This document shows, piece after piece, positions 4,752 through 30,600 of a DNA stretch of 32,000 nucleotides. Within the stretch, counting starts at the first letter, position 1. Each line of letters starts with the position of its first letter. The DNA comes from Bacteroidota bacterium (GTDB lineage Bacteria; Bacteroidota; Bacteroidia; Bacteroidales; P3): the NCBI GenBank assembly GCA_017860275.1, contig JAFNAQ010000002.1, positions 25,089-57,088 of the forward strand, given 5' to 3'. The translations under genes were made by a program, and so were the position numbers. Below the pieces are notes generated by a model, which saw only the letters and a list, made by a program, of their open reading frames with translations, was not told the DNA's origin and made no database searches.

Positions 4752-6182
4752 ATGAGTATAAAGCATAAAACAATTTATGGATTATTTTGGAGTAGTATAG
4801 AACGTTTCTCCTCACAGATAATTCAATTTGTAATTGGAATAATAATTGCACGCCTATTAGCACCAACAGACTATGGGCTAATAGGTATGCTTGCAATTTT
4901 CCTTGCTATATCTCAATCATTTATCGATAGTGGTTTCTCAAATGCACTAATCATTAAAAAAAACAGAACAGAGGCAGACTTTTCTACAGTATTTTATTTT
5001 AATATATTTGTAGGACTATTCTTCTATATAGTATTATTTTTCACCTCTGGCTTAATAGCCGATTTTTATAATTCCCCAATATTAGAGAACCTCACAAAGG
5101 TAGTAGGGATAACATTGTTTATTAACTCCCTAACCGTTGTTCAAAGGGCAAAGCTAACAATAGTTGTAGACTTCAAGACTCAAGCAAAGGCATCAATCAT
5201 TTCAGTAATAATATCTGGAATTATTGGAATATGGATGGCGTACTCCGGCTATGGAGTATGGGCATTGGCATATCAATCTGTTGCAAATGGCTTAGTAAAT
5301 ATGATAATGATTTGGGCATATTCAAAATGGAAACCTAAAAGAATATTCTCATGGACATCATTTAGGGAACTTTTCTCCTTTGGCTCAAAACTTTTATTAT
5401 CAGGGCTTATAGATACAATTTATAAAAATATTTATACTATAGTAATTGGGAAAAAGTTTTCTGCACATGATTTAGGATTTTATACACGTTCCGACCAATT
5501 GGCACAATTCCCCTCATCCAATATTTCAAATATATTCTCAAGAGTTATATTCCCAATCCTAAGCAGTATACAAACAGACGATGACCGCTTGCAAGATGTT
5601 TACAGAAAATACCTAAGACTTTCAGCCTTTATTATCTTTCCATTAATGGCAGGATTTGCAGCATTAGCCTCTCCATTTATTAATCTTCTACTAACACCCA
5701 AATGGGATGGAGCAGTTTTGATTCTTCAAATACTTTGTTTTGCCTATATGTGGTATCCAATACATTCCATCAATCTCAATCTTCTTCAAGTAAAAGGACG
5801 TTCCGATCTGTTTCTTCGATTAGAAATAATAAAAAAAATCATAGGTTTCACAATACTATTAATCACAATTCCAATGGGAATAATTCCAATGTGTATAGGG
5901 TTAGTAATCAACTCAATTATTTGTTTAACAATAAATACTCATTACACTGGAAAACTTATTAATGTTGGATTTGTTAAACAAATGAAAGACCTCTTACCAA
6001 CACTATTCTACTCCACAACGATGAGCGTTATAGTATGGTTAAGTATAATGTTGGTAGATAGTAATTTATTAAAATTATTACTAGGATTTGTGATAGGTAC
6101 AGTATACTATTTTGGAATAGCATATATATCAAAATCTAAAGAGATACACGAGATTCTTTCAATAATTAAACCTAAGAAATAG
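4752..6182 (+). CDS. wzx: Polysaccharide/O-unit flippase (MOP superfamily, Wzx-like)
   Basis: 476 aa with about 12-14 TM helices. Its N-terminus is typical of polysaccharide biosynthesis (PST) proteins and it sits in a sugar-nucleotide operon. Confidence 0.75.
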   Translation: MSIKHKTIYGLFWSSIERFSSQIIQFVIGIIIARLLAPTDYGLIGMLAIFLAISQSFIDSGFSNALIIKKNRTEADFSTVFYFNIFVGLFFYIVLFFTSGLIADFYNSPILENLTKVVGITLFINSLTVVQRAKLTIVVDFKTQAKASIISVIISGIIGIWMAYSGYGVWALAYQSVANGLVNMIMIWAYSKWKPKRIFSWTSFRELFSFGSKLLLSGLIDTIYKNIYTIVIGKKFSAHDLGFYTRSDQLAQFPSSNISNIFSRVIFPILSSIQTDDDRLQDVYRKYLRLSAFIIFPLMAGFAALASPFINLLLTPKWDGAVLILQILCFAYMWYPIHSINLNLLQVKGRSDLFLRLEIIKKIIGFTILLITIPMGIIPMCIGLVINSIICLTINTHYTGKLINVGFVKQMKDLLPTLFYSTTMSVIVWLSIMLVDSNLLKLLLGFVIGTVYYFGIAYISKSKEIHEILSIIKPKK

Positions 6183-6194
6183 ATAAAGAAGGCT

Positions 6195-7307
6195 ATGGAA
6201 GAAAAAAAAGTAATAACAGTAACTAGTCCATTATTTCCAAAACTAGAAGAATTTATACCCTATTTAGAAGAAATTTGGACGAATAAGTGGTTAACAAATA
6301 ATGGAGATTTTCATCAAAGATTAGAAAAAGAGTTGGCAGAATATTTAGGAGTAAAACATCTATCATTATTCTCAAATGGAACACTCGCTCTTATTACAGC
6401 ACTTCAAGCCCTAAGAATAACAGGAGAGGTAATAACAACACCCTATAGTTTTGTAGCAACAACACATTCCCTTTGGTGGAATGGAATAAAGCCAGTCTTT
6501 GTCGATGTAGAACCAAATACATTCAATATTGACCCAGAGAAAATTGAGGCAGCCATAACTCCAAAAACTACTGCAATTATGCCAGTACATGTCTATGGCA
6601 ACCCATGCAATATTGAAAGAATTCAACAAATTGCCGACTCATATAATCTAAAAATCATCTATGACGCAGCCCATGCCTTTGGGGTAAAGAAAAACGGAGT
6701 ATCCGTTTTAGAATATGGAGACTTATCAACACTAAGTTTTCATGCCACAAAAGTATTCTCCACAATAGAAGGAGGAGCAATTATTTGTCACGATGAGAAA
6801 ATGAAACGTCATATCGATGACCTTAAAAACTTTGGATTTAGAGATGAAACAACCGTTGTTGCGCCAGGAATAAATGCAAAACTCAACGAAGTTCAAGCAG
6901 CCTTTGGACTAGCAACACTATCTAAGGTCGATGATGCAATAGCTCATAGAAAGTTAATAGCCGATACCTATAGAGAAGGTCTTAGAGAAACAAAAGGAAT
7001 CTCTTTTATCGACGATTTAGAAGGAGTAAGGCATAATTATGCATACTTTCCAATATTTGTAGACCAAAAGCTATATGGAAAAACAAGAGACGAGCTCTAT
7101 TTCGCAATGCAAAAAGAAAATATATATGGAAGAAGATACTTCTATCCACTAATCTCTGAATTCTCAACCTATAGAGGATTACCCTCATCAAAAAAATCTC
7201 ATCTTCCAACAGCCAATAAAGTAGCAGAACAAGTTATCTGCCTTCCAATCTATGCCGATTTAGAAATCCAAGATGTAAAAAGAGTAATTGACTTTATTAA
7301 CAAATAA
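6195..7307 (+). CDS. DegT/DnrJ/EryC1/StrS-family PLP aminotransferase (dTDP-4-keto-6-deoxyhexose 4-aminotransferase type)
   Basis: 370 aa with the family motifs DAAHAFG and SFHATK (PLP lysine). It lies downstream of rmlAB. Confidence 0.85.
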   Translation: MEEKKVITVTSPLFPKLEEFIPYLEEIWTNKWLTNNGDFHQRLEKELAEYLGVKHLSLFSNGTLALITALQALRITGEVITTPYSFVATTHSLWWNGIKPVFVDVEPNTFNIDPEKIEAAITPKTTAIMPVHVYGNPCNIERIQQIADSYNLKIIYDAAHAFGVKKNGVSVLEYGDLSTLSFHATKVFSTIEGGAIICHDEKMKRHIDDLKNFGFRDETTVVAPGINAKLNEVQAAFGLATLSKVDDAIAHRKLIADTYREGLRETKGISFIDDLEGVRHNYAYFPIFVDQKLYGKTRDELYFAMQKENIYGRRYFYPLISEFSTYRGLPSSKKSHLPTANKVAEQVICLPIYADLEIQDVKRVIDFINK

Positions 7308-7311
7308 ACCA

Positions 7312-8001
7312 ATGAAACTCGGAATAATGCAACCATACTTCATGCCATACATAGGCTATTTTCAACTGATGAAAGTAGTCGATAAATATGTAATATATGA
7401 CGATGTAAACTATATAAAAGGAGGTTGGATTAATAGAAACAATATACTTATCAACTCAGAAAAAAGATTATTCACTATAGCATTAGATGGGGCAAGTCCA
7501 AATAAGAAAATAAATGAAATTCTTATCAAAGATGATTTCACAAAATTTCTTCGAAGCCTAGAATTATCATACCATAAAGCACCCTATTTTGAACAAGGCA
7601 TATCATTAATGAGAGATATATTAAAGTTCGAAGATAAGAATCTATCCCTTTTTATTGGTAATAGTTTTAGAGCTATATCTAATTACTTGGATTTCAATAC
7701 CGAGTTTCTATACTCCTCAAAAATAGAAAAAGATAATGAACTAAGAGCAGAAAAAAAGGTTATATCAATATGCAAGAGCCTTGGAGCAAGTGAGTATTAT
7801 AATGCAATAGGAGGTAAGGAGCTATACTCGAAAGAGAATTTTGAAACAAATGGATTAAAGCTTCACTTCCTAAAAACAAACCAAATTGAGTATAAACAAT
7901 TTGGTAATGTGTTCGTACCCAATTTATCGATAATCGATATATTAATGTTTAACTCCAAGGCTGAAATAAACCAGTTTTTAGACAATTATACATTAGAATA
8001 A
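7312..8001 (+). CDS. WbqC-like family protein (biochemical function unknown)
   Basis: N-terminal MKLGIMQPYFMPYIGYFQLM resembles the WbqC family. ATG 7312 is preferred over track start 7288, which overlaps the previous gene. Confidence 0.6.
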   Translation: MKLGIMQPYFMPYIGYFQLMKVVDKYVIYDDVNYIKGGWINRNNILINSEKRLFTIALDGASPNKKINEILIKDDFTKFLRSLELSYHKAPYFEQGISLMRDILKFEDKNLSLFIGNSFRAISNYLDFNTEFLYSSKIEKDNELRAEKKVISICKSLGASEYYNAIGGKELYSKENFETNGLKLHFLKTNQIEYKQFGNVFVPNLSIIDILMFNSKAEINQFLDNYTLE

Positions 8002-8029
8002 GAATCAACTAAACCTAAAGAATCCTATT

Positions 8030-9163
8030 ATGAATGTACATATTTTACCAGAAGATAAGTTTACCCAATATGCACGTAAGTTATTCGAAAAATACTATCC
8101 AAAAGAAAACCTCTATGTAGTAAACACCTCAGATATTAACAATCTAAAATATCTTTCGCTAACAGACGATTTTTTGTTCCTCGACCTAATGAACGAAAAC
8201 TCTTTATCTATAATAGAAGAGAAAGCAAACCATCAAATAGAAAATATATTTGTACACTACCTAAATAAACCCCATGGAGACGCAGCATTAATACTTAAGC
8301 ATAAATACAATTCAAAACTATACTGGATACCCTTTGGAGTAGACCTATACCCAATCTTAAAAGATAAGAAAAAGTACATACTCAATGACTACCCAATAAA
8401 GCCATGTAAAGAAAGGTTTACATGTAAACTAATACGCCAAAGAATAAAAGATTGCATAAAAAAAATAATAGGAATAGACTATACATATTTCTATCGATTT
8501 GTAGAACATTGCGATTATTTCTGTTTCTGGGACATATACGACTACGAGCTATTAGTTAATAATTTCCATACAAAATGCAAATTCAAGTTCTTTGCATATA
8601 ACGAAGAAGTATTGATACCAATAATAGAAAACGCCCAAAAGACCAACACAATAATAATCAATAATAGTGCATCACCCTCAGGCAACCACCTAAGCGTAAT
8701 GCGCAAACTCTTGCATATAGATAAAGAAAAACAATTCGATATAATCCTTCCACTAAGCTATGGAGACGATTGCGTAGTAAAACAAGTAACCGAATATGCC
8801 AACAAATACTATGGCAATAAAACAACCATCCTCAAAGACTTTATACCACTAGAGCAGTACAACGAAATATTATCAAAAACCTCAGTAGCTATATTTGGAA
8901 ACCGTAGGCAAGAAGCAGCAGGCAATATATTTATGCACATGCGCTTAGGCAATAAAGTCTTTCTAAGAAAAGAAAACAATATCTATCGCTTAGTAAAAGA
9001 GTGGGGAGGATACGTCTATTGTTTCGAAAAAGAACTCAACACAATAGAAGACCTACTAACCCCATTAACCCAAGAACAAATACAAAAAAACCGTCAAGTA
9101 GTAGAACAAAAATTTTCCATTCAAAGTGAAAAGAAATATATGCAAGAATTGTTTGCAGATTGA
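8030..9163 (+). CDS. WecF-like (GT56) 4-amino-4,6-dideoxyhexose transferase
   Basis: 377 aa. The stretches NNSASPSGNHLSVMRKL...PLSYGDD...FGNRRQEAAGNI resemble E. coli WecF GNSGDRSNEHIAALRAV...PMGYP...FARQQGIG from memory. The context matches an ECA-like module. Confidence 0.55.
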   Translation: MNVHILPEDKFTQYARKLFEKYYPKENLYVVNTSDINNLKYLSLTDDFLFLDLMNENSLSIIEEKANHQIENIFVHYLNKPHGDAALILKHKYNSKLYWIPFGVDLYPILKDKKKYILNDYPIKPCKERFTCKLIRQRIKDCIKKIIGIDYTYFYRFVEHCDYFCFWDIYDYELLVNNFHTKCKFKFFAYNEEVLIPIIENAQKTNTIIINNSASPSGNHLSVMRKLLHIDKEKQFDIILPLSYGDDCVVKQVTEYANKYYGNKTTILKDFIPLEQYNEILSKTSVAIFGNRRQEAAGNIFMHMRLGNKVFLRKENNIYRLVKEWGGYVYCFEKELNTIEDLLTPLTQEQIQKNRQVVEQKFSIQSEKKYMQELFAD

Positions 9164-9298
9164 TAAAACATAAAGTTCTAGTGTTAAAAATAATCCTGAT
9201 TAACCATAAAAATAGGAGTATATTATAATAATACTTCGAAAAAAAAATAAAAATAGAAGAAAAAAGGTTAATCAAGTTAATATTATTAATTATTTCCC

Positions 9299-9306
9299 TA
9301 CATTTG
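9299..9306 (+). promoter_or_regulatory. TAnnTTTG -7 box upstream of the AlbA_2 gene
   Basis: TACATTTG lies 80 nt upstream of ATG 9386. Confidence 0.35.
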
Positions 9307-9318
9307 CAATACCAAAAA

Positions 9319-9356
9319 CCACGCCAGTAACATAAAATTACATGTAACTGACGTGG
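9319..9356. promoter_or_regulatory. Imperfect 15-bp inverted repeat (operator or 5'-UTR hairpin)
   Basis: ccacgccagtaacat ... atgtaactgacgtgg pairs at 13 of 15 positions with an 8-nt loop. It lies between the putative promoter and the start codon. Confidence 0.4.
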
Positions 9357-9385
9357 CTTTGCCATTAGAGAAAACAAAATAATCA

Positions 9386-10765
9386 ATGGAAACCTCATTG
9401 TTTGCAATTCCAAAATCAGAAGGATTAAATGTAGAATTCAAATCCTCGTTCAATATTTCTGTAATAGAAACATTGGTTGCTTTTGCAAATAGTAAAGGAG
9501 GGAAAGTATATATAGGAATAAAAGACGACTTAAAAGCAAAAGGAGTCATTATATCTCAAGAAAGTGTACAAAATTGGATAAATGAAATAAAGTCTAAAAC
9601 AGAACCGTCATTAATCCCAGATGTTGAAATACTAGAAAAAGAAGATAAGAAAATAGTTGTATTAAGTGTTTCTGAATATCCAATAAAACCAATTTCTCTA
9701 CAAAATAGGTTTTATAAAAGAATAGGGAACTCAAACCATTTGATGAATGTTAGCGAGATTGCAGATGAACATCTAAAAACATTAAACACAAGCTGGGATT
9801 ATTACATAGACCCAAATCATAAAATTGAAAGCATATCCCTAACAAAAATAGAAAACTTCATTAATAAGATAGAAAAGAAAAATGGTATAGAGATAAAACT
9901 ATCACCAATTGACTTTCTTAAAAAACTAGAATTAATTCGAGAAGAAAAATTGACATTTGGAGCTTATTTAATGTTTTGTGAAGATAATAATCTGATAACA
10001 GATATTCAAATAGGACGATTCAAAAGTGAAATAACAATAATAGACAACTTATCCATATCAACAGATATATTTTCAGAGGTAGATGAATTGATTTCTTTTA
10101 TCAAAAAACATCTGATGATAGAATATATAATAACTGGAAACCCTCAAAGAACAGAGAGATTTGACTATCCATTAGAAGCAATAAGAGAAATAGTAATTAA
10201 CATGATAGTCCATAGAGATTATAGAAGTACATCATCATCAATAATAAAAATTTATGACGATAGAATAGAATTTTATAATCCAGGTAAAATATACGGAGAT
10301 ATAAATATTAGTGATATAATTTCAGGGAATTATATATCACAAACAAGAAATAAACTAATAGCAAAATGCTTTAAGGAAGTAGGGTTAATAGAAAAATATG
10401 GATCAGGAATAAAAAGAGTAATAGAACTCTGCAGAGATCATGGAATAAAAGACCCAGTTTTTGAAGAACAATCAAATGGATTTGTAGTAAAACTATACAA
10501 AAATATAATATCAGAAAAGAGTACGGAAAAGAGTACGGAAAAGAGTACGGAAAAGAGTACGGAAAAGAGTACGGAAAAGAGTACGGAAAAGATCTTGGAA
10601 TTAATAAAAGCAAACCCTAAGATAACAACAATAGAATTAATGCAAGAGACAGGACTATCTCAAAAGGGAATAGAAAAAAATATTTCAAAACTAAAAGAAG
10701 AAAACCAAATCAAAAGAGAAGGTGGAAGGAAAACAGGACATTGGAAGCTAAAAGCTAAAAACTAA
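9386..10765 (+). CDS. AlbA_2 (Schlafen-like) + HATPase_c_4 + C-terminal wHTH protein, the family often mis-annotated as 'RecG-like' or 'transcriptional regulator'
   Basis: N-terminal EGLNVEFKSSF...LVAFANSKGGKVYIGIKDD is the AlbA_2 signature and REIVINMIVHRDY...IEFYNPG is HATPase_c_4-like. The C-terminal ILELIKANPKITTIELMQETGLSQKGIEKNISKLK looks like a wHTH. Confidence 0.7.
   Translation: METSLFAIPKSEGLNVEFKSSFNISVIETLVAFANSKGGKVYIGIKDDLKAKGVIISQESVQNWINEIKSKTEPSLIPDVEILEKEDKKIVVLSVSEYPIKPISLQNRFYKRIGNSNHLMNVSEIADEHLKTLNTSWDYYIDPNHKIESISLTKIENFINKIEKKNGIEIKLSPIDFLKKLELIREEKLTFGAYLMFCEDNNLITDIQIGRFKSEITIIDNLSISTDIFSEVDELISFIKKHLMIEYIITGNPQRTERFDYPLEAIREIVINMIVHRDYRSTSSSIIKIYDDRIEFYNPGKIYGDINISDIISGNYISQTRNKLIAKCFKEVGLIEKYGSGIKRVIELCRDHGIKDPVFEEQSNGFVVKLYKNIISEKSTEKSTEKSTEKSTEKSTEKSTEKILELIKANPKITTIELMQETGLSQKGIEKNISKLKEENQIKREGGRKTGHWKLKAKN
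10514..10592 (+). repeat. 12-bp tandem repeat x6.5, in frame (EKST)n
   Basis: gaaaagagtacg occurs six times without a mismatch (10514-10585), plus a partial seventh unit. It encodes EKSTEKSTEKST... between the HATPase-like and wHTH regions. Confidence 0.95.
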
Positions 10766-10774
10766 AAGTGAAAA

Positions 10775-10968
10775 ACGGTATCGCCAAACTTTTCACTATT
10801 AACTATTAACTTTTCACTTAATATGGCATCGCCCAAACTTTTAACTTTTAACTTTTAACTATTCACTACCCTGCTTTTACCTTTTTACTTGCTTTTCACT
10901 GCTTTTCACTCATCACTCTTAACTTTTCACTTAATACGGTCTTGATTTTTGCAACTTTGTATCAAGAC
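10775..10968. repeat. Full-length mosaic intergenic repeat (left copy), inverted relative to copies at 27723-27823 and 28891-29027
   Basis: 10852-10946 is the exact reverse complement of 28914-29008 (95/95 by hand alignment). 10775-10874 matches the reverse complement of 27723-27823 with 3 differences. The copy contains GGCGAT(G/A)CC cores and the hairpin gtcttgat-N14-atcaagac (10939-10968). Confidence 0.9.
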
Positions 10969-11043: not shown

Positions 11044-12309
11044 ATGGATATAAAGATAGCAGTGATCGGTTTAGGTTATGTAGGCCTACCGCTTGCAAGG
11101 TTGTTCTCAACCAAATACTCAACCATAGGTTACGACATAAATAAAGCAAGAGTAGAGCGCCTAATGCAAGGCGTAGACGAAACCTTAGAAGTAGAAGACT
11201 CATTGCTTCAAGAAGCAATAGAAAAGCATAACTTTATCTGCACAACCAATCTTGATGCAATAAAAGAATGTAACTTCTTTGTAGTAACAGTTCCAACTCC
11301 AGTCGATAAACATAATAACCCAGACCTAACACCACTATACAAGGCATCCGAAACAGTAGGAAAGGTAATCAAAAAGGGAGATATAGTAGTGTATGAATCT
11401 ACCGTTTATCCAGGAGTAACAGAAGAAGAATGCTTGCCAGTAGTAGAAAGAATCTCAGGATTGAAATACAACCAAGACTTTTTCGCAGGCTACTCACCAG
11501 AAAGAATAAACCCAGGCGACAAAGAACACACAGTAGAAAAAATCCGCAAAGTAACTTCAGGCTCAACACCTGAAATAGCTACGATAGTAGACGATGTATA
11601 TAACTCAGTACTAATAAACGGAACACATCTAGCATCATCAATCCGAGTAGCAGAAGCATCGAAGATAATAGAAAACTCACAAAGAGACGTAAACATAGCC
11701 TTTATGAACGAGTTAGCAAAGATATTCAACGCAATGGGTATAGACACTAACGACGTAATAGAAGCAGCAGCATCGAAATGGAACTTCATTAAGCTAAAAC
11801 CAGGCTTAGTAGGAGGACACTGCATAAGCGTAGACCCATACTATCTAATCCAAAAAGCACAGATATATGGAGTCCTTCCAAGAATAATGTCCGATGCAAG
11901 ACGCCTCAACGACAATATGGGAGAATACGTAGCAAACCGTGTAATAAAACTAATGAACAAAAAAGGAGTAGTTGTAAAAGATGCAAATATCCTAATCTTA
12001 GGAATAACATTCAAAGAAAACTGCCCAGACATACGCAACACAAAGATAGTAGATATACACTCAACCCTAAGCGAGTACACAAGCAATATCACAATCTTCG
12101 ACCCATGGGCAAACAAAGAAGAAGTAAAACACGAATATAACGTAGAAATTACCAACATCCTACCAAAAGAAAGATTTGATGCTATTATTCTTGCAGTAGC
12201 ACACAATGAATTCTTAGAATTAAACCTAACAACTTTAAGAAAAGATAATAGTGTATTGTATGATGTAAAGAACATCTTACCAAAAGAAATGGTAGACGGA
12301 AGATTGTAA
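11044..12309 (+). CDS. Nucleotide-sugar dehydrogenase, TviB/WbpO/Cap5O-type (UDP-N-acetylhexosamine 6-dehydrogenase-like)
   Basis: 421 aa with the N-terminal Rossmann motif IAVIGLGYVGLPLA and the catalytic region GGHCISVDPYYL typical of this subfamily. Confidence 0.85.
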   Translation: MDIKIAVIGLGYVGLPLARLFSTKYSTIGYDINKARVERLMQGVDETLEVEDSLLQEAIEKHNFICTTNLDAIKECNFFVVTVPTPVDKHNNPDLTPLYKASETVGKVIKKGDIVVYESTVYPGVTEEECLPVVERISGLKYNQDFFAGYSPERINPGDKEHTVEKIRKVTSGSTPEIATIVDDVYNSVLINGTHLASSIRVAEASKIIENSQRDVNIAFMNELAKIFNAMGIDTNDVIEAAASKWNFIKLKPGLVGGHCISVDPYYLIQKAQIYGVLPRIMSDARRLNDNMGEYVANRVIKLMNKKGVVVKDANILILGITFKENCPDIRNTKIVDIHSTLSEYTSNITIFDPWANKEEVKHEYNVEITNILPKERFDAIILAVAHNEFLELNLTTLRKDNSVLYDVKNILPKEMVDGRL

Positions 12310-12347
12310 TTTAAAATTTATAATTTACAATTTAAAAGTTGAAGAAA

Positions 12348-12470
12348 ATCTTAGCCGTAGCCCATAACGAGTTCCTAGAACTAGACCTACGCTCAATGCT
12401 AAAATGTAGTGGAGTACTATACGACGTAAAAAACATCTTACCAAAAGAAATGGTTGATGGAAGATTGTAA
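12348..12470 (+). pseudogene. 3'-terminal remnant of a divergent dehydrogenase allele (40 codons + stop)
   Basis: Translates ILAVAHNEFLELDLRSMLKCSGVLYDVKNILPKEMVDGRL*. It differs from the intact gene end at 23 of 40 codons, 15 of them synonymous. Confidence 0.9.
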
Positions 12471-12508
12471 TTAAAAATTTATAATTTACAATTTAAAAGT
12501 TGAAGAAA

Positions 12509-12631
12509 ATCCTAGCCGTAGCCCATAACGAGTTTCTAGAACTAGACCTTCGCTCAATGCTAAAAGAAAACGGAGTATTATATGATGTAAAAAACATCTT
12601 ACCAAAAGAAATGGTTGACGGAAGATTGTAA
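12509..12631 (+). pseudogene. Second 3'-terminal dehydrogenase remnant
   Basis: Translates ILAVAHNEFLELDLRSMLKENGVLYDVKNILPKEMVDGRL* and is close to the first remnant. Confidence 0.9.
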
Positions 12632-12668
12632 TTTAAAATTTAAAACTTACAATTTAAAAGTTGAAGAA

Positions 12669-12686
12669 GGCGGAAGATTGGAATTT
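12669..12686 (+). pseudogene. Micro-remnant of the dehydrogenase stop region
   Basis: ggcggaagattggaattt matches gacggaagattgtaattt, with the stop mutated. It is flanked by the same spacer words. Confidence 0.5.
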
Positions 12687-12721
12687 AAACTTTTAAACTT
12701 AAAATTTAAAAGTTGAAGAAA

Positions 12722-12862
12722 ATTCTAGCAGTAGCACATAATGAATTAAAATCTTTAAACCTTAAAGAACATCAAAAACAATTATCAGTATTGTATGATG
12801 TAAAATCAGTAACGCTAAAGGAATTAATTGTCGAAATACATAAAACTAAATACTATAAATAA
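12722..12862 (+). pseudogene. Fourth, strongly divergent dehydrogenase 3' remnant
   Basis: Translates ILAVAHNELKSLNLKEHQKQLSVLYDVKSVTLKELIVEIHKTKYYK*. Its stop overlaps the ATG of the next ORF (TAATG). Confidence 0.8.
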
Positions 12863-13551
12863 TGAAGTTTGACGAATATAATATTAAAGCAAGAATTTTA
12901 CCTTCAATTATAATTTTGATACCTATATTGCTTTTTTTTAATAATTGCAAAATTGATAATATTCAAGTTGTTTTTAATAATCTATTAAGTGTAAAAATAA
13001 TTGGAAATGTTACTCTGTCTATTGCTCTACTATTTTTATTAGTGCAAGTTAATAGATATATTGGTAAGTATATTTTTGAAAAGAGAATGTATAAAAAAGA
13101 GCTGGACATGCCTACAACAATTTTTTTATTATATAGTAATTCCGAATTTTCTAAGGAATATAAAAACCGATTGAGAAAACAAATAGAAAATGATTTTTTT
13201 ATCATTTTACCAGATGAACAATTAGAAAATACAAACTTATTAGAAACAAAAAAAAGAATAATAGAAGCTGTTGGATTAATAAGACATAAAGTAAAAAATG
13301 GAAGGCTACTTTTACAGCATAATATCGAGTATGGTTTTTTTAGAAATTTTATAGGCGGTTCTATAATAGGTTTATTAATTTCTGCATTTAATATTTTTTA
13401 TTTTTACATTATCAATGACAAGTTAATATTTGGCATCAATATTGGATTATCTAGTCTATTTGCTTTACTTTTTATATTTCATCGTCCAATAATTATTAAT
13501 TTAGGTAATCAATATGCAAAAAGATTATTTCAAGAGTACTTAGCAAAATAA
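12862..13551 (+). CDS. Hypothetical 4-TM membrane protein with a ~100-aa charged central domain
   Basis: 229 aa with two N-terminal and two C-terminal hydrophobic helices. I recognise no family. The start is coupled to the preceding remnant. Confidence 0.6.
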   Translation: MKFDEYNIKARILPSIIILIPILLFFNNCKIDNIQVVFNNLLSVKIIGNVTLSIALLFLLVQVNRYIGKYIFEKRMYKKELDMPTTIFLLYSNSEFSKEYKNRLRKQIENDFFIILPDEQLENTNLLETKKRIIEAVGLIRHKVKNGRLLLQHNIEYGFFRNFIGGSIIGLLISAFNIFYFYIINDKLIFGINIGLSSLFALLFIFHRPIIINLGNQYAKRLFQEYLAK

Positions 13552-13567
13552 TTAAACATAAGTAATA

Positions 13568-14512
13568 ATGATTAAAATACATTTTATAAATGTTGGACAT
13601 GGAGACTGCATTGTAATTGAGTTTTGTGATAAATCTAGAATAGCAGTTGTAGATATAAATATGTCAAAAGAGATGGATAATGATTCGCAAAGTGAAGTAT
13701 TAAATGAATTAAATTCTTATGATAAGAATCATTATCAATCCCTCAATTTTTCAAATAGTCAAATATTTGAAAAAGCGGGTTATAATATCAATCTAACCAA
13801 CCCAATTGATTACATTAAGCAATTGACTAATGGTTCCATATTTAGATTTATTTCAACTCATCCACACCTAGACCATTTATCGGGATTAAGTGAATTAAAA
13901 TCGAGAGTTGGAATATTAAATTATTGGGTTGTTAATAATAAATTATTAGTAAATAGTTCCAATTTAAGCAATAGTCAAAATGAAGATTGGACTTTATATA
14001 AGAAGCTTAGAGATACGACAGAGCGAATACAAGATGGAATTACTATTGTAAAACCAAAGGAAGGTTCTAAAAATCAATATTGGATTGAAGATAATATTAC
14101 AATTTTATCACCAAATAATAAATTAGTAAAATTGGCTGAAGAAACGAATAGGCCGAATATAATGAGCTACGTGTTATTAATTAATTATGCTGGTCATAAA
14201 ATAATTTTAGGAGGTGATGCAGAAGATGAAACTTGGGAATATATATATAAAAATCATTCAGATTTAATAAAAGATGTTACTATTTTAAAAGCATCTCATC
14301 ATGGTAGAAACAGTGGGTATTATCAATCTGCAATTGAACTTATGAAACCTAAATACACGATTGTTTCAGTAGGAAAAAAGCCAGATACTGATGCTTCTAA
14401 CAAATATAGAAATTATTGTGAAAATGTATTGTCAACAAGGTGGATGGGAAATATTGTATTTGAAATTCATTCAAAAGGAGAGATAAAGTATTATTGTGAA
14501 CATAATCGTTAG
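13568..14512 (+). CDS. Stand-alone metallo-beta-lactamase-fold hydrolase, ComEC/Rec2 C-terminal-domain type (predicted nuclease)
   Basis: 314 aa with NVGHGD near the N-terminus, THPHLDH (HxHxDH), GGDAED and KASHHGR. This is the motif set of ComEC-like MBL domains. Confidence 0.75.
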   Translation: MIKIHFINVGHGDCIVIEFCDKSRIAVVDINMSKEMDNDSQSEVLNELNSYDKNHYQSLNFSNSQIFEKAGYNINLTNPIDYIKQLTNGSIFRFISTHPHLDHLSGLSELKSRVGILNYWVVNNKLLVNSSNLSNSQNEDWTLYKKLRDTTERIQDGITIVKPKEGSKNQYWIEDNITILSPNNKLVKLAEETNRPNIMSYVLLINYAGHKIILGGDAEDETWEYIYKNHSDLIKDVTILKASHHGRNSGYYQSAIELMKPKYTIVSVGKKPDTDASNKYRNYCENVLSTRWMGNIVFEIHSKGEIKYYCEHNR

Positions 14513-14808: not shown

Positions 14809-16050
14809 ATGTCTATTCGAAAAAAACTCTCATATAATCTTTTAATTCAGGCAATAGGTCCTATTCTATCTTTTCTTACTATTTTTTTAATTGCAAGGAT
14901 TGGTGGACCCAAAACACAAGGTTATTATGCTAGTATATCTGCATGGATTAATTTTGCTGTAGTTGTTGGGATATTTGGGTTTCCCCAAAGCTTCATCTAT
15001 TTAATCAATAAGATGAATACCTCTCCTAAAATTTTGATTAAGGGGTCATATTTTTATTCTATTTTATTTTTATTACTATTTATACCTGTTATTTTTGTAT
15101 TAATAAGTAATAATCTTATTAATAGTATTGTAATTAGTACTAATATTCAAGTTTTTATTTTAGGTGTACCAATAGCAATACTAATCCTTCATGGTTTATT
15201 AAGAGGAATATATTTAACTTATAATCAAAGTATTTTATTTGCTATTTTTTCAATTTTGCCAGCTTGTATTCTTTTCTTATTTGTGTTTATTGGTTTGATT
15301 TTTAAATATCTTAATTTTCAATTGATATACCTCATTTCATCTATTCCATTATTAGTCATTATTATTTTAATGATGAGACCTCTGGTGAATGATAATAAAA
15401 ATAATGATTATATTAAAAAAATATCTTGGAAAATATTATTTAATCATGGAATAAATACATTTTTACAGGCTTTGTTTTTAGCATCACAACCGATAATAGC
15501 GTATTGGATAATCAATAAATATATTGGGGGAACTATTGAAATTGGTTATTTTAATTTAGGATTATTTTTAGTACAAGGATTATTAGTTCCAATAAGTATG
15601 ATTGCACCATTACTATTTGAACATTGGACAAAAAATAGTAATTATAGATCAATAGTAAAAATAAATAAATTCAAATTTTTTATTTTAGAGTTCATTTTGG
15701 GTTGTTTATTAGCCCTCTCTTTACAATATATAATTCCAATAATTTTTGGATTTGAGTACATAAAATCAATAAGAGTTGCTCAAATTCTAATAATAGCTAC
15801 TCCAATAATTTTTCATACTAGAATACTAATACCAGCAATTCATTCTAAAGGTCATCCTATTATTAATACTTATACTGGCTTCTTAAGATTAATTCTATTC
15901 GTTATTATATCTTATACATGGTTGAAATTAGTTGATCATGGATTAACTGGTTTAGCAATAGCTTGGTCATTGTCTGAGCTTATTGTTGCTGTAATATCAA
16001 TTATTTTATTTAATAAATTATTTAAAGATGAATATTTATATATTACTTAA
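14809..16050 (+). CDS. wzx: Second oligosaccharide flippase (Wzx-like, MOP superfamily)
   Basis: 413 aa with about 12 TM helices, very AT-rich, and followed by acetyltransferase and polymerase genes. Confidence 0.65.
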
Positions 16051-16600
16051 GAATATTTTGTCACTAATTATTTCATATACATATTATTTAATAGGGAATA
16101 TTAGAGCTAGTTTGCTTGGTGTTAAATTAGGAAGAGGAGCTAAAGTAAGCCCAAAATCTAAAATAAAAAATGCTTACTATATAGGAAATGCAACAATAGG
16201 TTCATCAGTCATTCTTGGTAATGGAAGTTATATTAATTCAGGTACGATTATGACAGGTGTAATTGGAAACTATTGTTCAATTGGTTATAATGTTATTATT
16301 GGACCTACAGAACATAATGTTGAATTTATTACAACTTCTCCTAGTCATGCTATAAGTCTTGGTTATAAATCCTCTATTGTAGAAAAATTTAAAAATCCAC
16401 CAAATATAGAAGATGAGGTTTGGATTGGAGCAAATGTAGTAATTTTAAAGGGTGTCAATATAGGTAATGGTGCTATTATTGCGGCTGGTGCTGTTGTAAC
16501 TAAAGATGTACCTAGTATGGAGATATGGGGTGGTGTACCAGCAAAATTTATAAAGAAGAGAGGGATTAAATATAACAATTATGCAGATGGATGTTTATAA
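16028..16600 (+). CDS. Left-handed beta-helix (hexapeptide-repeat) O-acetyltransferase
   Basis: [49 protein letters not shown] is a typical LbH acetyltransferase C-terminus. The ORF overlaps the previous gene by 23 nt. Confidence 0.85.
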
Positions 16601-17960
16601 TCAATTTTTTTCACTTATAGGATTAATCTTTTATATATTTAGCATATTTATATCTATCTTACTTGTTTCATCAAGTAAAAAGGATAAATACTCATTTAAA
16701 AATTTAACACCGATTTTTTTTATTTTAATTGTTGCACTATATGTATTGCCACTGTCACTTTTTAATTTTTCTCAATCCAATCCAATAGGAGATATTAGTC
16801 CTCAATTTTTCTCTTTTTCTCAATATATTCCTTATGCAAATATTTTATGTGCTGTTTTTAACATTACTTTTGTGTTCTTTTATAAAAAATTCACATTGTT
16901 TAAATGTTATTCAATGACTGTAAATACACAAAATAGAATAAAAAGATATGAATATTATATTATTTTTCTATTATTAATAATTTCTATCTTTATGCTTTTT
17001 CAATTAAGTAGAGAAGTTGGTGGTTTTCTTAACTTAATATTGTCTGGTTATGGAGTTACTAATCTATTTGTTGGTAAAAATCATTATGCAGTAGGTTTTG
17101 AATGGATAGTTTCATTAAGTATTATTTTATGGGGTAATGTATTATCAATAAAAAATAAAAAATATATATACATATACATGGTATTAATACTTATACTTTC
17201 TATTATTTTCTTTATCATGGGTAGAAGAGCTGTGTTGGTAATACTGATAGGAACTTCGGTGCTTTTATATTATCAACTGTACAAACGAATAAGTATTTTT
17301 AAATTATTATCTTTGTTTTCTCTTTGTTTCTATCTTTTAACTCTTAATGGTTTTTTAAGAGGCGACTCGTATGAAAACTTTTCATCATTATCTACTACCT
17401 TATATGAAAAGAAACAAAATATTGATAATGAGTCTTTGAATTATTTCTATACTTTGACTAGCGGAAATTTTGCAGTGCCCTATGAAACATTACCTCAAAT
17501 TGTTAAATCATTGGGTGTAGACTATAATTTAGGATTGGGTAAATATAGTTTTGGCCCTATTTCTGCTATTATTCCTAATGTCTTGTGGCCAGATAGACCT
17601 TTACCTCTCTCAAATTGGTATATGGCCACTTTTTATGATGTTAAGCGATTAAATGAAGGTCGTCAGTTTTTTTTATTAACTGCACCTTATATGGATTTTG
17701 GTCCAGCAGGAGTAATTTTGATTGGAATATTTTTTGCTTATTTCTGGGCAAATATTGTTAAAAGAGGTATTAAATACCACGATGATGTATTAGTAACTAT
17801 ATTAATAGCATTAGTTTTCTCAAATACTTTGAATATGGTATCTAATGATTTTTTAGGATGGGCAGTCGCTTTTTTTAAAGGTTATGGATTTCCTGTGATT
17901 ATTTTATTATTAATTAGAAAGATCAAATCAAATATTAAATATTATTTAAAGCTACGTTGA
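16581..17960 (+). CDS. wzy: O-antigen/capsule repeat-unit polymerase (Wzy-like)
   Basis: 459 aa with more than 10 TM helices and a large loop in the C-terminal half. It is extremely AT-rich, overlaps the acetyltransferase by 20 nt, and sits next to wzx. Confidence 0.6.
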
Positions 17961-18069: not shown

Positions 18070-18342
18070 ATGACCGACAAAGAAAAAATTGAAAAATTAG
18101 TCTCTATGGAAGTAGAGGATAAGATTAATGATCATTCTGCTGTTACTGTTAATATTTCTATCAGAGAGATTATGGCGGCTAAAGGTTTTTCAGAAGATAG
18201 GATTGAAGAGTTTATTCAAATATTTCAAGAGGAGATAGCAAGACTAATTGTTACAGATAGGGAAAAGTTTGACGATTTTATTAGGGAACTTAGTGGTATG
18301 GATAAAGATTGTAGGGTAGATATTGTTAAGGATGATTGCTAA
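18070..18342 (+). CDS. Hypothetical small acidic protein (90 aa)
   Basis: The ORF has G/T-skewed codon usage like the neighbouring real genes and is helical and acidic. I recognise no family. Confidence 0.45.
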   Translation: MTDKEKIEKLVSMEVEDKINDHSAVTVNISIREIMAAKGFSEDRIEEFIQIFQEEIARLIVTDREKFDDFIRELSGMDKDCRVDIVKDDC

Positions 18343-18668
18343 GATGAATTTCTAATTTTAAATTACAACTTTTAAATTACTCATTATCAACCTAAATATA
18401 TATTTATTTCTAGAAATTTAAAAGCGGTGTTGTTAAGATTATCAGGTATTTAATATTTAGATTAAAAAAAATATTAGAATAAAATTTTCGAATTAAATAA
18501 TAAATTAATTTATTCTCACGTTATATACTAAAATTTAGCGAAATTACCTGCATTTTTAATTATAAATTCAAGCAAAAATATAATTTGAGCAAGAGTTTAT
18601 AGATAAAAACTAAGGAAAAATAAAAATTAACCTTGAATTTTTGAATTAATACTTGATCTAAATACCTC

Positions 18669-18749
18669 AAAAATGGCACTTTTATATGCGAAAAATGGCA
18701 TTTTTGAATATTAAAAGTGGCACTTTTAAACCATGAAAATGGCACTTTT
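18669..18749. promoter_or_regulatory. Array of four 15-bp palindromic sites AAAA(A/G)TG-G-CA(C/T)TTTT at exact 22-bp spacing
   Basis: The sites lie at 18669-18683, 18691-18705, 18713-18727 and 18735-18749, with centres at 18676, 18698, 18720 and 18742. The array ends 54 nt upstream of the HU-like gene. Confidence 0.7.
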
Positions 18750-18802
18750 AGGGTAAAAAGACTTGATGTAAATGCAAAAATGCTTGATTAAATTTTGAAG
18801 AT

Positions 18803-19219
18803 ATGGCAATTAAATACTTTAGACTCAAGAGAAAAATTACAACCAATAGTATTCCAGAGGATAAATACATTGCTGTTATTCAACAAGAAGCTAGAGTTGG
18901 GTTTGAAGAACTTGCGGAAATGATTGAAAAGAAAAGCACCTTGAGTAGGGGAGATATCTTAGGAGTATTTGCTGAAATGGAGACAACGGCTCTTTGGATG
19001 TTGGAAAATGGTCACCCATTAATTTTGAGGCTTTTTGGTTCATATTTTCCTGCAATTGAAGCAACGGCGGTCGATACTCCAGAGGAAGTGACGGTCAAAA
19101 CTATCAAGAGATTTAAATGTATTTATAAGCCTTCGGTTTATATGAAGAAAAGGTTTAAAAAAGTTGAATTTGTGTTAGGAGATAATAGAGTTAGGGAGGT
19201 GCATTATAAAAAAGATTGA
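18803..19219 (+). CDS. Bacteroidetes HU-like (histone-like) DNA-binding protein, long form
   Basis: 138 aa. It shares KY(I/L)A...F(E/K)...MIEK(K)ST(L/V)SRGD(I/T)L...E(M/-)TA...GH...PEEVT..TI with the next ORF, which resembles the HU-fold 'putative DNA-binding protein' family common in Bacteroidales. Confidence 0.65.
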   Translation: MAIKYFRLKRKITTNSIPEDKYIAVIQQEARVGFEELAEMIEKKSTLSRGDILGVFAEMETTALWMLENGHPLILRLFGSYFPAIEATAVDTPEEVTVKTIKRFKCIYKPSVYMKKRFKKVEFVLGDNRVREVHYKKD

Positions 19220-19286
19220 ATAAAAATGCTACATAAATAAGGTGGCAGCTTAATTAAATATAATAATCAACTTAAAATTTCTGCTT

Positions 19287-19694
19287 ATGAAATTTAGAAA
19301 AGTTAAAAAGAATATCCATGTTGGCTATTCTCCTGGTGAAAAGTATTTAGCTCAACCTGTTAAAGGCGAAACAATCGACTTTAAGGCTATGGCTGCAATG
19401 ATTGAGAAATCAACCACTGTTAGTAGAGGGGACACCCTCAATGTGCTTGATGCAATGGCTACTGCTGCAGTAACCATGATAAAAGCAGGTCATAACGTAA
19501 AATTCGATGGTCTTGGAATCTTTGATCTAAAGACTAAGGTTAAGGCAATGAATACCCCAGAGGAGGTAACTGCTGATACCATCGAAAGAATTACAATTGG
19601 ATTTATTCCAACTGTAGAGTTAAAAGACCAAATGAAGTCTGTTTCTATAAGTATTGACCCATACGAAACAGAACCAACACCTCCAACTCCGTAA
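19287..19694 (+). CDS. HU-like DNA-binding protein, tandem paralogue with a Pro/Thr-rich tail
   Basis: 135 aa and clearly a paralogue of 18803-19219. The C-terminus is ETEPTPPTP. Confidence 0.65.
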   Translation: MKFRKVKKNIHVGYSPGEKYLAQPVKGETIDFKAMAAMIEKSTTVSRGDTLNVLDAMATAAVTMIKAGHNVKFDGLGIFDLKTKVKAMNTPEEVTADTIERITIGFIPTVELKDQMKSVSISIDPYETEPTPPTP

Positions 19695-27668: not shown

Positions 27669-27823
27669 CTACTTATTTTTACCTTGATGCAAAAGCAATG
27701 CTTCGCAAGTTAAAAGGTAATAGCAGGGTAGTGAATAGTTAAAAGTTAAAAGGTAAAAGTTTGGGCGATGCCATATTAAGTGAAAAGTTAATAGTTAATA
27801 GTGAAAAGTTTGGGCGATGCCGT
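27669..27823. repeat. Mosaic intergenic repeat, right copy A (inverted relative to 10775-10874)
   Basis: gcagggtagtgaatagttaaaag...tttgggcgatgccatattaagtgaaaag...tttgggcgatgccgt matches the left copy with 3 differences in ~100 bp. It is preceded by the module ctacttatttttaccttgatgcaaaag, which is shared with 28879-28905. Confidence 0.9.
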
Positions 27824-27897
27824 ATGTTTTTTAGTTTGATACTTTTTACTTTTAGTTTGCAATTTAAAATTTAAAACTTACAATTAGAAAAAAAGTT

Positions 27898-28842: not shown

Positions 28843-29027
28843 CTTGATAGAAAAGTAACAAAATATCAAAACTTTTTCTACTTACTTTTACCTTGATGCA
28901 AAAGTAACAAAATATCAAGACCGTATTAAGTGAAAAGTTAAGAGTGATGAGTGAAAAGCAGTGAAAAGCAAGTAAAAAGGTAAAAGCAGGGTAGTGAATA
29001 GTTAAAAGGTAAAAGGTAAAAGTTTTT
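28843..29027. repeat. Mosaic intergenic repeat, right copy B (inverted relative to 10835-10968)
   Basis: It contains two cttgat..atcaag hairpin modules (28844-28869 and 28892-28919). These are followed by 95 bp identical to the reverse complement of 10852-10946. Confidence 0.92.
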
Positions 29028-29083
29028 TTTGAGGATTTACCCTTATTTTTCACTTTTATTTTTTAGTTTTTCACTCTTTAATT

Positions 29084-29254
29084 AAACTCGCCTTTGGCTC
29101 AGACAGTATAAACTTTCTTAACGGTTTTAAGTCTCTTCCTCTTTACGGTAATTTCAAAATGTCATTCTTGGCGATGCCGTGTTTGTTTGTTTATTTGTGT
29201 AATCTGTGAAAATCTGTGGGCAAAAATAAGTTGCGAAGTAACTTCAAACTTTAT
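29084..29254. repeat. Direct repeat L flanking the KilA-N cassette
   Basis: The first 80 bp (aaactcgcctttggctcagacagtataaactttcttaacgg...) match 30418-30497 at 76/80. A looser tail follows with ggcgatgcc, gtaatctgtg..atctgtgggcaaaaa and gttgcgaagtaacttcaaactttat. Confidence 0.9.
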
Positions 29255-29449: not shown

Positions 29450-29473
29450 TAGTCTTATTAGAAATTGATTATT

Positions 29474-30289: not shown

Positions 30290-30417
30290 TTTTGCTATCA
30301 CAGAAATTTTAAAATTAAACGTTTCTTCAGCATAACTTTTTTCTTGATAAAAAAGTTACAAAAAATCAAGACTGTTCAAAATTACCTATTCCAGAGTCTG
30401 AAACCCAAAAAGTTTAT

Positions 30418-30600
30418 AAACTCGCCTTTGGCTCAAACAGTATAAACTTTCTTAACGGTTTTAAGCCTCTTCCACTTTACGGTAATTTTAAAATGTCGGT
30501 TTGGGCGATGCCGGGTTTAATTTTAATTTGTTACTTTTAATTTATGTAATTTGTGGAAATCTGGGGGAAAATAAACGTTGTAAGCAACTTCAAACTTTAT
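30418..30600. repeat. Direct repeat R flanking the KilA-N cassette
   Basis: See 29084-29254. The module order is the same, with indels in the tail. Confidence 0.9.

Follow-up and report, generated by a model that had tools for sequence, protein, structure and literature searches.

A periodic stack of diverged 3' ends behind a nucleotide-sugar dehydrogenase gene in a Bacteroidales surface-polysaccharide locus: a possible recombination scar

How can the 3' end of one enzyme gene come to stand several times in a row behind that gene, in versions that resemble the alleles of other organisms? The question is raised by a surface-polysaccharide locus of a Bacteroidota bacterium from an uncultured Bacteroidales lineage, in which an intact nucleotide-sugar dehydrogenase gene is followed by a series of shorter and partly decayed copies of its own end. 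The stretch of DNA analysed, called the window below, is 32 kb long and comes from one short-read metagenome-assembled genome (MAG; NCBI, locus tag H6Q15). It was compared with loci from other genomes and assemblies, which are labelled with L-numbers (L001, L131 etc.). We suggest that the array is a non-functional recombination scar, formed at the 3' end of the dehydrogenase gene by local re-duplication combined with allelic overwriting, and we give this explanation an even chance of being correct. The tail copies are probably silent and without function. From their composition we infer that the stack records how the end of the gene itself was turned over at a recombination hotspot, and not a succession of cassette imports. 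The scar is real, statistically robust and unusual, and the mechanism behind it is partly resolved.

The repeating unit of the array is 161 bp long and consists of the last 41 codons of the gene (40 plus stop) and the gene's own 38-nt flank (Table 1). The stop codons of tails A, B and C are exactly 161 bp apart, and Tandem Repeats Finder (TRF) reports a period of 161 with 2.5 copies and 92% matches. The tail coordinates and the stop spacing had been given in a preliminary description of this DNA and were reproduced here; the spacer of about 40 bp that was said to follow each copy measures 38, 38, 37 and 38 nt in order. The copies are all direct repeats. Downstream of the intact gene, each of the remnants B, C and E begins in the conserved ILAVAH block, and the three spacer-tail junctions fall at the identical nucleotide, between GAAGAAA and AT. 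Only the 38-nt flank separates the remnants, and there is no cargo between them. The junctions of the array can be recognized by the k-mers GTTGAAGAAAATCTTAGCCGTAGCC, GTTGAAGAAAATCCTAGCCGTAGCC, GAAGAAGGCGGAAGATTGG and GTTGAAGAAAATTCTAGCAGTAGCAC.

The distal part of the array is more irregular. A micro-remnant described earlier as 18 bp (12669-12686) is present but comprises only 15 nt, the other three nucleotides being part of the next spacer. It represents the last five codons, with the stop changed from TAA to GAA. Micro-remnant d (15 nt), spacer S4 (38 nt) and remnant E (108 nt) together make exactly one circularly permuted 161-nt unit. In an equivalent view, the last 15 nt and the spacer are duplicated at a period of 52-53 bp, and TRF indeed detects a 52-bp period over 12619-12720. 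The most divergent end, placed earlier at 12722-12862, is also present, but its homology to the dehydrogenase tail covers 12722-12829 only. The last 32 nt before the TAATG are unrelated, and past tail position 108 the region after E matches its closest allele, that of L085, at 5/15 positions only. The TAA that overlaps the next ATG lies in this unrelated sequence and is not the stop of the dehydrogenase gene, so that it cannot be assigned to remnant E as had been proposed.

Table 1. Dehydrogenase gene, parts of the array and neighbouring modules in the window
Feature	Coordinates	Strand	Remarks
Nucleotide-sugar dehydrogenase, 421 aa	11044..12309	+	TviB/WbpO-like UDP-N-acetylhexosamine 6-dehydrogenase; conserved left anchor of the variable slot
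Tail A	12187..12309	+	Last 40 codons and stop of the intact gene; allele type of the closest relatives
Spacer S1	12310..12347	+	Native 3' flank of the gene; weak palindrome TTGTAA..TTACAA overlapping the stop codon
Remnant B	12348..12470	+	Full tail copy (40 codons and stop), DLRSML allele type; final 45 nt of resident type
Spacer S2	12471..12508	+	38 nt
Remnant C	12509..12631	+	Full tail copy; head nearest the intact allele of L131
Spacer S3	12632..12668	+	37 nt; copy nearest the native flank of L002
Micro-remnant d	12669..12683	+	15 nt, GGCGGAAGATTGGAA vs GACGGAAGATTGTAA; tail positions 109-123
Spacer S4	12684..12721	+	38 nt; most diverged spacer
Remnant E	12722..12829	+	Tail positions 1-108, KE(F/Y)ESLNLKEYQK-type allele; most decayed, 3'-truncated
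Sequence without detectable dehydrogenase-tail homology	12830..12862	+	Between remnant E and the next gene; holds the TAA overlapping the ATG
4-TM protein (229 aa) and MBL-fold protein (314 aa)	12862..14512	+	Two-gene module at the end of the array
Wzx-like flippase, hexapeptide acyltransferase, oligosaccharide repeat-unit polymerase	14809..17960	+	Pfam; TIGR04370 3.6e-15; GC 23-27%
HU-HIG gene pair	18803..19694	+	Pfam PF18291; conserved right anchor of the variable slot

The first 78 nt of each tail (the head) and the remainder of the unit have different affinities. Between A and B, 29/78 positions differ up to unit position 78 and 4/83 after it, a breakpoint that is strongly supported (maximum chi-square 25.8; 0/2000 permutations). 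The head of A is 87% identical to L001 and 82-85% to L002, L082 and L083 (85% for the last). The head of C is 87.2% identical to L131, above its 85.9% to B. For E the closest head is that of L085 (84.6%), with matches at 42/48 positions over nt 30-78, and in BLAST alignments E shows 85.6% identity to L085 over 90 nt and 78% to L004 over 109 nt. The head-to-allele signal is concentrated in nt 30-78; in the conserved first 30 nt, which were inspected for hybrid head starts as a test of slippage, all alleles score much the same (20-27/30). A search for the closest full-length alleles, as recommended in the preliminary description, thus places the variable parts nearest to different foreign intact alleles (A to L001, C to L131, E to L085; 85-87%), and the heads are not closest to the resident gene. 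The variable part of each unit is thus derived from diverged alleles, and the variable middle of each copy represents a different allelic lineage, each existing as an intact gene in another Bacteroidales genome.

The 3' parts of the units tell a different story. Resident-like sequence is confined to the last 45 nt and the spacer. The last 45 nt of C are 97.8% identical to B and 95.6% to A, and only 86.7% to L131, the source of its nearest head; A, B and C share 93-98% mutually in this part versus 84-87% with L131. The spacers form a ladder in which S1 agrees with S2 at 37/38 positions, with S3 at 35/37 and with S4 at 33/38, and S3 matches the L002 flank at 35/37. An S1-type flank follows the intact gene in L002 and L083, and the flanks after the L131 and L085 alleles are unrelated. 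The resident-type last 45 nt and the spacer ladder indicate that the 3' parts of the units are local copies, the youngest of which lie nearest the gene. Each unit also has its own diagnostic single-nucleotide polymorphisms (SNPs) within 40 nt of its junctions.

The gene body upstream of the array has a composite structure too. The protein contains the N-terminal, central and C-terminal UDPG_MGDP_dh domains (Pfam) and scores 384 bits against the NCBIfam model TIGR03026 and 533 bits against PRK15182 (TviB). The latter value is under the cutoff of 592, and the exact substrate was therefore left unassigned. Its closest relatives are found in uncultured Bacteroidales, with 83-92% protein identity (91-92% for the best). 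In a sliding identity scan against these relatives, blocks of 96-99% identity to L001, L004 or L083 lie beside blocks of 60-75%, which marks the gene body as a recombination mosaic. Within the intact gene, 28-nt stretches at 12154-12181 and 12271-12298 form a direct repeat with 79% identity. Its 19-nt core, AACATCYTACCAAAAGAAA, encodes NILPKE twice, 117 nt apart, and the repeat brackets the start of the tail region. It is a possible substrate for slippage, and a 117-bp unit originating from it was ruled out since the observed period is 161 bp.

Codon comparison shows how the copies diverged. The counts reported earlier for A and B are exact: 23 of the 40 codons differ, 15 of these synonymously, and the 8 replacements are clustered in NLTTLRKDNS vs DLRSMLKCSG. 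Between B and C 9 codons differ, 7 of them synonymously. The ratio of nonsynonymous to synonymous substitution rates (dN/dS; Nei-Gojobori) is 0.044 for A-C and 0.10 for B-C (dS 0.40); for A-B dS is saturated and the proportion of nonsynonymous differences (pN) is 0.13. Random-substitution simulations gave as few replacements in 0/4570 runs for A-B, 0/5266 for A-C and 2/10857 for B-C (stop-free runs). These ratios, a check that the preliminary description had called for, agree with its view that the copies diverged under purifying selection and not by slippage and neutral drift. Despite proportions of synonymous differences (pS) of 0.31-0.75, B and C contain no stop codon, indel or frameshift, and positions with at least 90% conservation in a set of 88 distinct tails are all retained in both. 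Remnant E is without the conserved D-x-R-L-stop end. Relative to the nearest functional allele, pN/pS rises from 0.06-0.11 (A) through 0.17 (C) and 0.19 (B) to 0.31-0.41 (E), values based on 36-40 codons with low statistical power and to be read against a baseline between functional alleles of 0.05-0.24 overall and 0.11-0.14 within the E type. The rise of decay with distance from the gene suggests that the distal unit is the oldest. Since silent gene copies decay at roughly the synonymous rate, B and C are not old snapshots of one slowly evolving resident gene, and to judge from these rates their differences must have accumulated in parallel in functional genes of separate lineages.

These observations bear directly on the simplest explanation, in which local slippage of a 161-bp unit was followed by neutral divergence. 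The exact period, the near-identical spacers and the slippage-like duplication of 52/53 bp inside the array would fit such a process. It would not produce dN/dS values of 0.04-0.10, which essentially no simulation reached, nor heads that resemble foreign intact alleles more than the resident tail, nor copies such as B and C that are free of stops and indels at this level of synonymous difference. As a full explanation it has a negligible chance of being right. Slippage is refuted for the heads, and it is still part of the best explanation for the last 45 nt and the spacer.

The region downstream of the array is relevant for a second explanation. Homologues of the HU-HIG pair are found 2.6-9.4 kb downstream of the dehydrogenase gene in L002, L004, L005, L082, L085, L086 and L131. 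The slot between dehydrogenase and HU-HIG genes is accordingly 2.6-9.4 kb long, with 25-28% GC. In tblastx comparisons of eight genomes, the window shares 0% of the slot with the seven relatives, most other pairs share 0-16%, and L085 and L131 share 35%. Since slot content is almost unshared between fixed anchors, the dehydrogenase 3' end is the left border of a replaceable slot, as had been recognized earlier; the HU-HIG pair is the right border. The preliminary description went further and proposed that the conserved 3' end and spacer serve as the left homologous arm for repeated import of foreign downstream cassettes, each event stranding the previous end, and that remnant E arrived with the pair of genes for a protein with four transmembrane segments (4-TM) and a protein of the metallo-β-lactamase (MBL) fold. 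Such import would agree with the wholesale replacement of the slot between related genomes, with heads that are foreign alleles under past purifying selection, and with decay that increases distally. However, a homologous left crossover would replace the old end and not strand it. No cargo is present between successive remnants, the spacers and last 45 nt are local (S1-S2 37/38) and not of donor type, as the unrelated L131 and L085 flanks illustrate, and the seven relatives with different slot contents carry no remnant. The proposed role as a crossover arm was not borne out on these grounds, and we consider serial cassette import quite unlikely.

The association of E with the 4-TM/MBL pair does not hold either. 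The 4-TM protein (MBP1629391.1, H6Q15_284) has more than 100 homologues and belongs to no Pfam family; the two-gene module is widespread and is represented by L163-L168. In the three contexts examined its homologue is followed by a partner of 301-314 aa. These settings are mutually unrelated, and in other phyla the pair has genes for TIR, HNH and helicase proteins as neighbours. In PADLOC, the MBL protein is matched by the candidate defence family PDC-M48B (2e-24). None of the homologues lies near a dehydrogenase gene in the contexts examined, and none was found in 160 related loci. A search for sequence shared upstream of the 4-TM genes, which would mark the left end of the module, found none. 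By these matches and contexts, the pair is a mobile, defence-like module, probably an uncharacterised anti-phage one, that was inserted in the polysaccharide locus. As the pair never occurs beside the dehydrogenase gene and occupies unrelated contexts resembling defence islands, and as E is cut at tail position 108, E was truncated beside an inserted module and is not a native, translationally coupled upstream partner of that module.

In view of the above, the following history can be considered for the scar. One illegitimate tandem duplication of the gene end with its flank would have founded the array and created the junction between spacer and tail start that is common to all copies. Next, the gene-proximal copy would have been re-duplicated repeatedly, by slippage or unequal exchange in short homology, and the functional copy would have been overwritten by homologous recombination with DNA of diverged relatives. 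Of the two crossovers, the left one would fall within the mosaic gene body, the right one within the conserved last 15-45 nt or the flank, and each round would leave the ousted end behind as a silent remnant. Damage at a later stage would explain the distal part: one unit may have lost its first 108 nt, leaving the micro-remnant, and remnant E may have been cut at tail position 108, where the mobile 4-TM/MBL module now begins. Rounds of re-duplication and overwriting would account for the mosaic, the spacer ladder and the decay gradient.

Several points weigh against this history. Homologous recombination alone cannot put a spacer to the left of a formerly functional head, and the model therefore needs either repeated slippage or exchange in a conserved block of 23 nt or a recurrent illegitimate event at identical nucleotides. 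Furthermore, tail A is the allele type of all closest relatives, which means that either the native type was the last to be regained, or none of B, C and E ever served as the functional end in this genome. Breakpoints recur without explanation at the spacer end, where two junction types occur, and at tail position 108/109, which is both the start of the micro-remnant and the end of E. The array is known from one genome only, and genome and metagenome scans yielded no conspecific (best match 91-92% aa), so that unit order and history are uncheckable against other strains. Finally, no second assembly could be retrieved that covers the left half (A-S1-B-S2-C), whose unit number and order rest on a single short-read MAG.

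The allele type of tail A suggests a variant in which A was always the functional end. Units B, C and E would then have been inserted downstream without ever being attached to the gene, through unequal recombination or a small circular intermediate from array-bearing donors, after which gene conversion homogenised the last 45 nt and the spacer. All closest relatives indeed carry tail A and its spacer. One crossover in the conserved 83-bp part would place new units directly after A and give the same gradient with older units more distal, and a circular-intermediate model has been published for Rhs genes (PMC2935791). Such capture does require donors that possess an array with the same junction, and none was seen in 161 loci. 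Excised circles would carry internal and not functional heads, which leaves the selection signature of B and C unexplained, and the spacer ladder suits serial local copying better than uniform homogenisation. We judge silent capture to be unlikely, though not so far-fetched that it can be neglected.

The recurrent breakpoints could also be taken as the mark of a directed process. The flank end, with its dispersed palindromic repeat, and tail positions 1 and 108/109 would then be preferred sites of breakage or template switching, and each allelic exchange would append a new end and shunt the old one downstream. If true, this would be a C-terminal-displacement mechanism acting on a housekeeping gene of a glycan pathway, and it would leave a readable, time-ordered recombination log at a locus of surface-polysaccharide diversity. 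We regard a process of this kind as rather improbable. The palindromic motif TTGTAA..TTACAA occurs four times in the window, against 0.19 expected, among other places at 30683. Folding of the spacers is not significant: the hairpins of S1-S3 have energies of -3 to -6 kcal/mol and z values of -0.3 to -1.4 relative to shuffled sequences. The stretch of micro-remnant and S4 reaches z = -2.2, but the stem predicted there involves a different pairing. An RNA or regulatory role of the array was looked for with Rfam families, tRNAs and terminator-like sites, without a match, and sigma-70-like matches merely reflect the AT-rich palindrome.

The reliance on a short-read MAG raises the question whether the array is an assembly artefact, in which the contig threads allelic gene-end variants of co-occurring strains or misjudges the number or order of units. 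Stretches of 31-38 nt are identical between units, the independent Logan assembly of SRR10861756 breaks within the array, and the left half was not retrieved from a second assembly. The Logan contig L162 does reproduce 12589-12900 base for base, including the junctions S3-d, S4-E and E-4-TM. L162 begins inside a 32-nt stretch common to B and C, at which a graph with k=31 must branch if both copies exist, and the break is thus as expected for a real repeat. Another Logan contig, L170, ends in a 12-bp tandem repeat of the Schlafen-like gene upstream of the dehydrogenase gene. Simple allelic variation cannot yield k-mers that join a spacer to a tail start, and at least one tandem junction must therefore exist in the reads. 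The diagnostic SNPs near the junctions are moreover specific to each unit. An artefact is, in our opinion, very unlikely.

A wider search for similar stacks gave little. A detectable tail was present in 150 related loci, 145 of which extend at least 500 nt downstream of it. With tblastn and a tail profile in nhmmer over 161 other loci, no second tail or stack was found in the approximately 145 assessable ones, so that cassette replacement normally leaves no remnant. Exact matches to the dehydrogenase, to the open reading frames (ORFs) of B and C and to the Schlafen-like neighbour are not on record. Short tail-like ORFs gave 134 matches in a set of 5.8 billion proteins, mostly on short contigs, and the two inspected on long contigs are frameshift fragments of full genes (L171-L174). 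Among the short tail-like ORFs examined, the only apparent true orphan tail is found at 831-971 of L081, a contig of 1082 bp (ENA ERZ15184890), in an unrelated context with no dehydrogenase body upstream. It encodes an ORF of 46 aa with 92% identity to tail A over 38 aa, and its left boundary lies about 8-20 nt upstream of that in the window. With a coverage of 0.68x, this contig may be chimeric.

The orphan tail and the common left boundary of the remnants could point to integrative elements. Such elements, i.e. a phage, an integrative and conjugative element (ICE) or an integrative and mobilizable element (IME), would insert at the 3' end of the gene, each supplying its own version of that end, and accretion followed by loss would leave a pile of attL and attR sites. 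Stacked att repeats at gene 3' ends are known from the accretion of ICEs and cis-mobilizable elements (CIMEs), and here the same left boundary recurs in all remnants and the two junction types share the breakpoint at the spacer end. Yet excision between att sites leaves one site and not a stack, and the repeats enclose no cargo. No integrase or recombinase domain was detected by Pfam in the 27 ORFs scanned, nearly the full set of ORFs of 100 aa or more in the window. The junction pattern and the tail peptides are absent from IMG/VR viral contigs save for one match with 45% identity. The L081 tail, with its different boundary, does not mark the same site, and the ORFs next to it have no phage-family matches. 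Stacking of att sites can hardly be upheld as the origin of the array.

The genes around the array are those of a surface-polysaccharide locus, all on the + strand. The left side contains, in order, pyrB, pyrI, an EamA-like gene, rmlA and rmlB, followed by genes for a flippase, a DegT aminotransferase, WbqC, a GT56-like transferase and a Schlafen/AlbA_2 ATPase, and then the dehydrogenase gene. To its right lie the repeat array, the 4-TM and MBL-fold proteins, the Wzx-like flippase, the acyltransferase, the Wzy-type polymerase and two HU-HIG genes, past which additional glycosyltransferase and sugar-nucleotide genes are found. The order pyrBI-EamA-rmlA-rmlB-dehydrogenase is kept in L002, L003, L005, L082, L084 and L085. 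Among the relatives compared, only the window genome has an extra block of about 6 kb between rmlB and the dehydrogenase gene (4752-10765), which holds the second flippase, DegT, WbqC, the GT56-like transferase and the Schlafen-like ATPase. In L004, homologues of the flippase and DegT genes of this block sit downstream of the dehydrogenase gene instead. The Schlafen/AlbA_2-HATPase gene contains a perfect 12-bp tandem repeat, GAAAAGAGTACG x6.6, at 10514-10592, which encodes (STEK)n.

Several other repeats occur in the window. Just upstream of the dehydrogenase gene, at 10745-10966, a repeat of some 130-160 bp carries many AACTTTT/AAAAGTT heptamers, and also GGGCGATGCC hairpins. Inverted copies of it, with 87-95% identity, are located about 17 kb downstream at 27691-27851 and 28892-29025, and together they bracket the dehydrogenase gene and the entire variable gene block. 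A dispersed intergenic element of about 170-230 bp has two copies in the window with 81% identity (29083-29254 and 30335-30600). One to four copies of this element are present beside the dehydrogenase gene in L002, L003, L082, L085 and L131, mostly just upstream, and it looks like a clade-specific family of the miniature inverted-repeat transposable element (MITE) or repetitive extragenic palindrome (REP) type. The protein encoded at 29465-30289 contains a KilA-N domain and matches the PADLOC candidate defence family PDC-S22 at 7.5e-130; homologues with about 69% identity are encoded upstream of the dehydrogenase gene in L018, L085 and L131. About 3.7 copies of a 22-bp, partly palindromic repeat with TGGCAC(T/A)TTT precede the HU-HIG pair at 18669-18750 and could be a putative binding array for a regulator or a sigma-54-like factor.

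The array also coincides with a change in base composition. Third-codon-position skews flip exactly at the array, with a switch at about 12310-12860, even though every gene is encoded on the + strand. On the left, AT-skew3 of the 11 genes ranges from +0.09 to +0.56 and GC-skew3 is at most +0.11, the dehydrogenase gene being the extreme (GC-skew3 -0.47, AT-skew3 +0.56). To the right, GC-skew3 is positive except for the last gene (-0.09) and AT-skew3 is negative except for the small ORF at 18071-18343. The switch after the dehydrogenase gene recurs in the close relatives examined (L001-L005, L082 and L085) and not in Bacteroides/Parabacteroides loci. A replication origin at this position was rejected. 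The block of odd skew is short in L001 and L004, with normal DNA on both sides, and thus it looks like block-specific composition, through an old inversion or repeated import.

Few parts of bacterial genomes change as fast as surface-polysaccharide loci, and the history of their exchange is normally inferred only by comparison of strains. In the present case one genome seems to have retained three or more displaced versions of the end of a border gene, with a decay gradient and a division into local and imported parts. If their order is chronological, the stack would be a within-genome record of how often, and from how far, alleles have been imported at the border of a glycan-diversity slot. 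It would also mean that C-terminal displacement, so far described for polymorphic toxins, can occur at an ordinary enzyme gene. The array is one occurrence in one MAG and probably a neutral by-product. The gene encodes a cytoplasmic sugar-nucleotide dehydrogenase, for which there is no obvious selective reason to keep spare ends.

Comparison with known systems helps to place the array. Some resemblances are partial. As in the accretion of ICEs and CIMEs and of tRNA-linked islands, there are direct repeats of a gene 3' end that have a fixed left boundary and can be read serially, but no integrase, inter-repeat cargo or identifiable att core is present. The pattern is in fact the opposite of that of att sites, since the copies differ over 37% of the variable part and the flanks are near-identical. 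Integron cassette arrays have an IntI integrase, an attI site and attC hairpins that bound each cassette; no integrase was found here, and the spacer hairpins are weak and give no Rfam matches. Shufflons and silent-cassette switching use recombination sites and a dedicated recombinase to vary functionally distinct surface or target-recognition domains, whereas in the array all copies have the same orientation, there is no recombinase and the protein is a cytoplasmic Rossmann-fold enzyme. Tandem duplications in merodiploids are triggered when incoming DNA recombines at repeats (Johnston et al. 2013, PMC3784515). They share with the array that recombination with exogenous DNA can leave old and new versions of a segment in tandem, but they span 100-900 kb between repeats resembling insertion sequences (IS) and are unstable, whereas the present unit measures 161 bp and lacks flanking repeats at a matching distance; the only internal direct repeat, that at 12154 and 12271, would produce a period of 117 bp.

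In its working, the closest analogue appears to be C-terminal displacement in Rhs and contact-dependent growth inhibition (CDI) systems. In Rhs and CdiA loci, a series of dissociated 3' ends stands behind an intact gene, and these are read as ends that were displaced by laterally acquired ones (Jackson et al. 2009, PMC2935791; Poole et al. 2011, PMC3150448). The array has this layout too: the 3' ends downstream of the intact gene are dissociated, each begins in one of its conserved blocks, and their age increases with distance from the gene. However, the tips here are homologous alleles of one enzyme end and not non-homologous toxin domains, and neither immunity genes nor other genes accompany them, only a 38-nt spacer between units. 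Rhs core fragments vary in length with the crossover site, whereas here all fragments start at the identical nucleotide, and the units, which contain the 38-nt flank of the gene itself, repeat exactly every 161 bp. An array that has no toxin tips, immunity genes or cores of variable length lies outside the Rhs/CDI family.

By context, the array belongs with polysaccharide-cluster exchange through junctions inside conserved sugar-pathway genes. When O-antigen and capsule clusters are replaced, homologous recombination takes place in conserved genes that flank the cluster or belong to the pathway, and gene remnants are left at the junctions, as for the rml genes of Salmonella (Reeves et al. 2013, PMC3715488). 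The similarity is considerable: a conserved nucleotide-sugar gene borders a variable wzx/wzy region of low GC, the anchor gene is mosaic and has the junction inside it, and remnants mark past events. As far as our searches show, a periodic stack of allelic ends is undescribed in the literature searched on this type of exchange. In the clusters described, the remnants are single, irregular pieces of displaced genes or IS elements, whereas here several ends of the same gene, derived from different alleles, follow each other at a fixed period.

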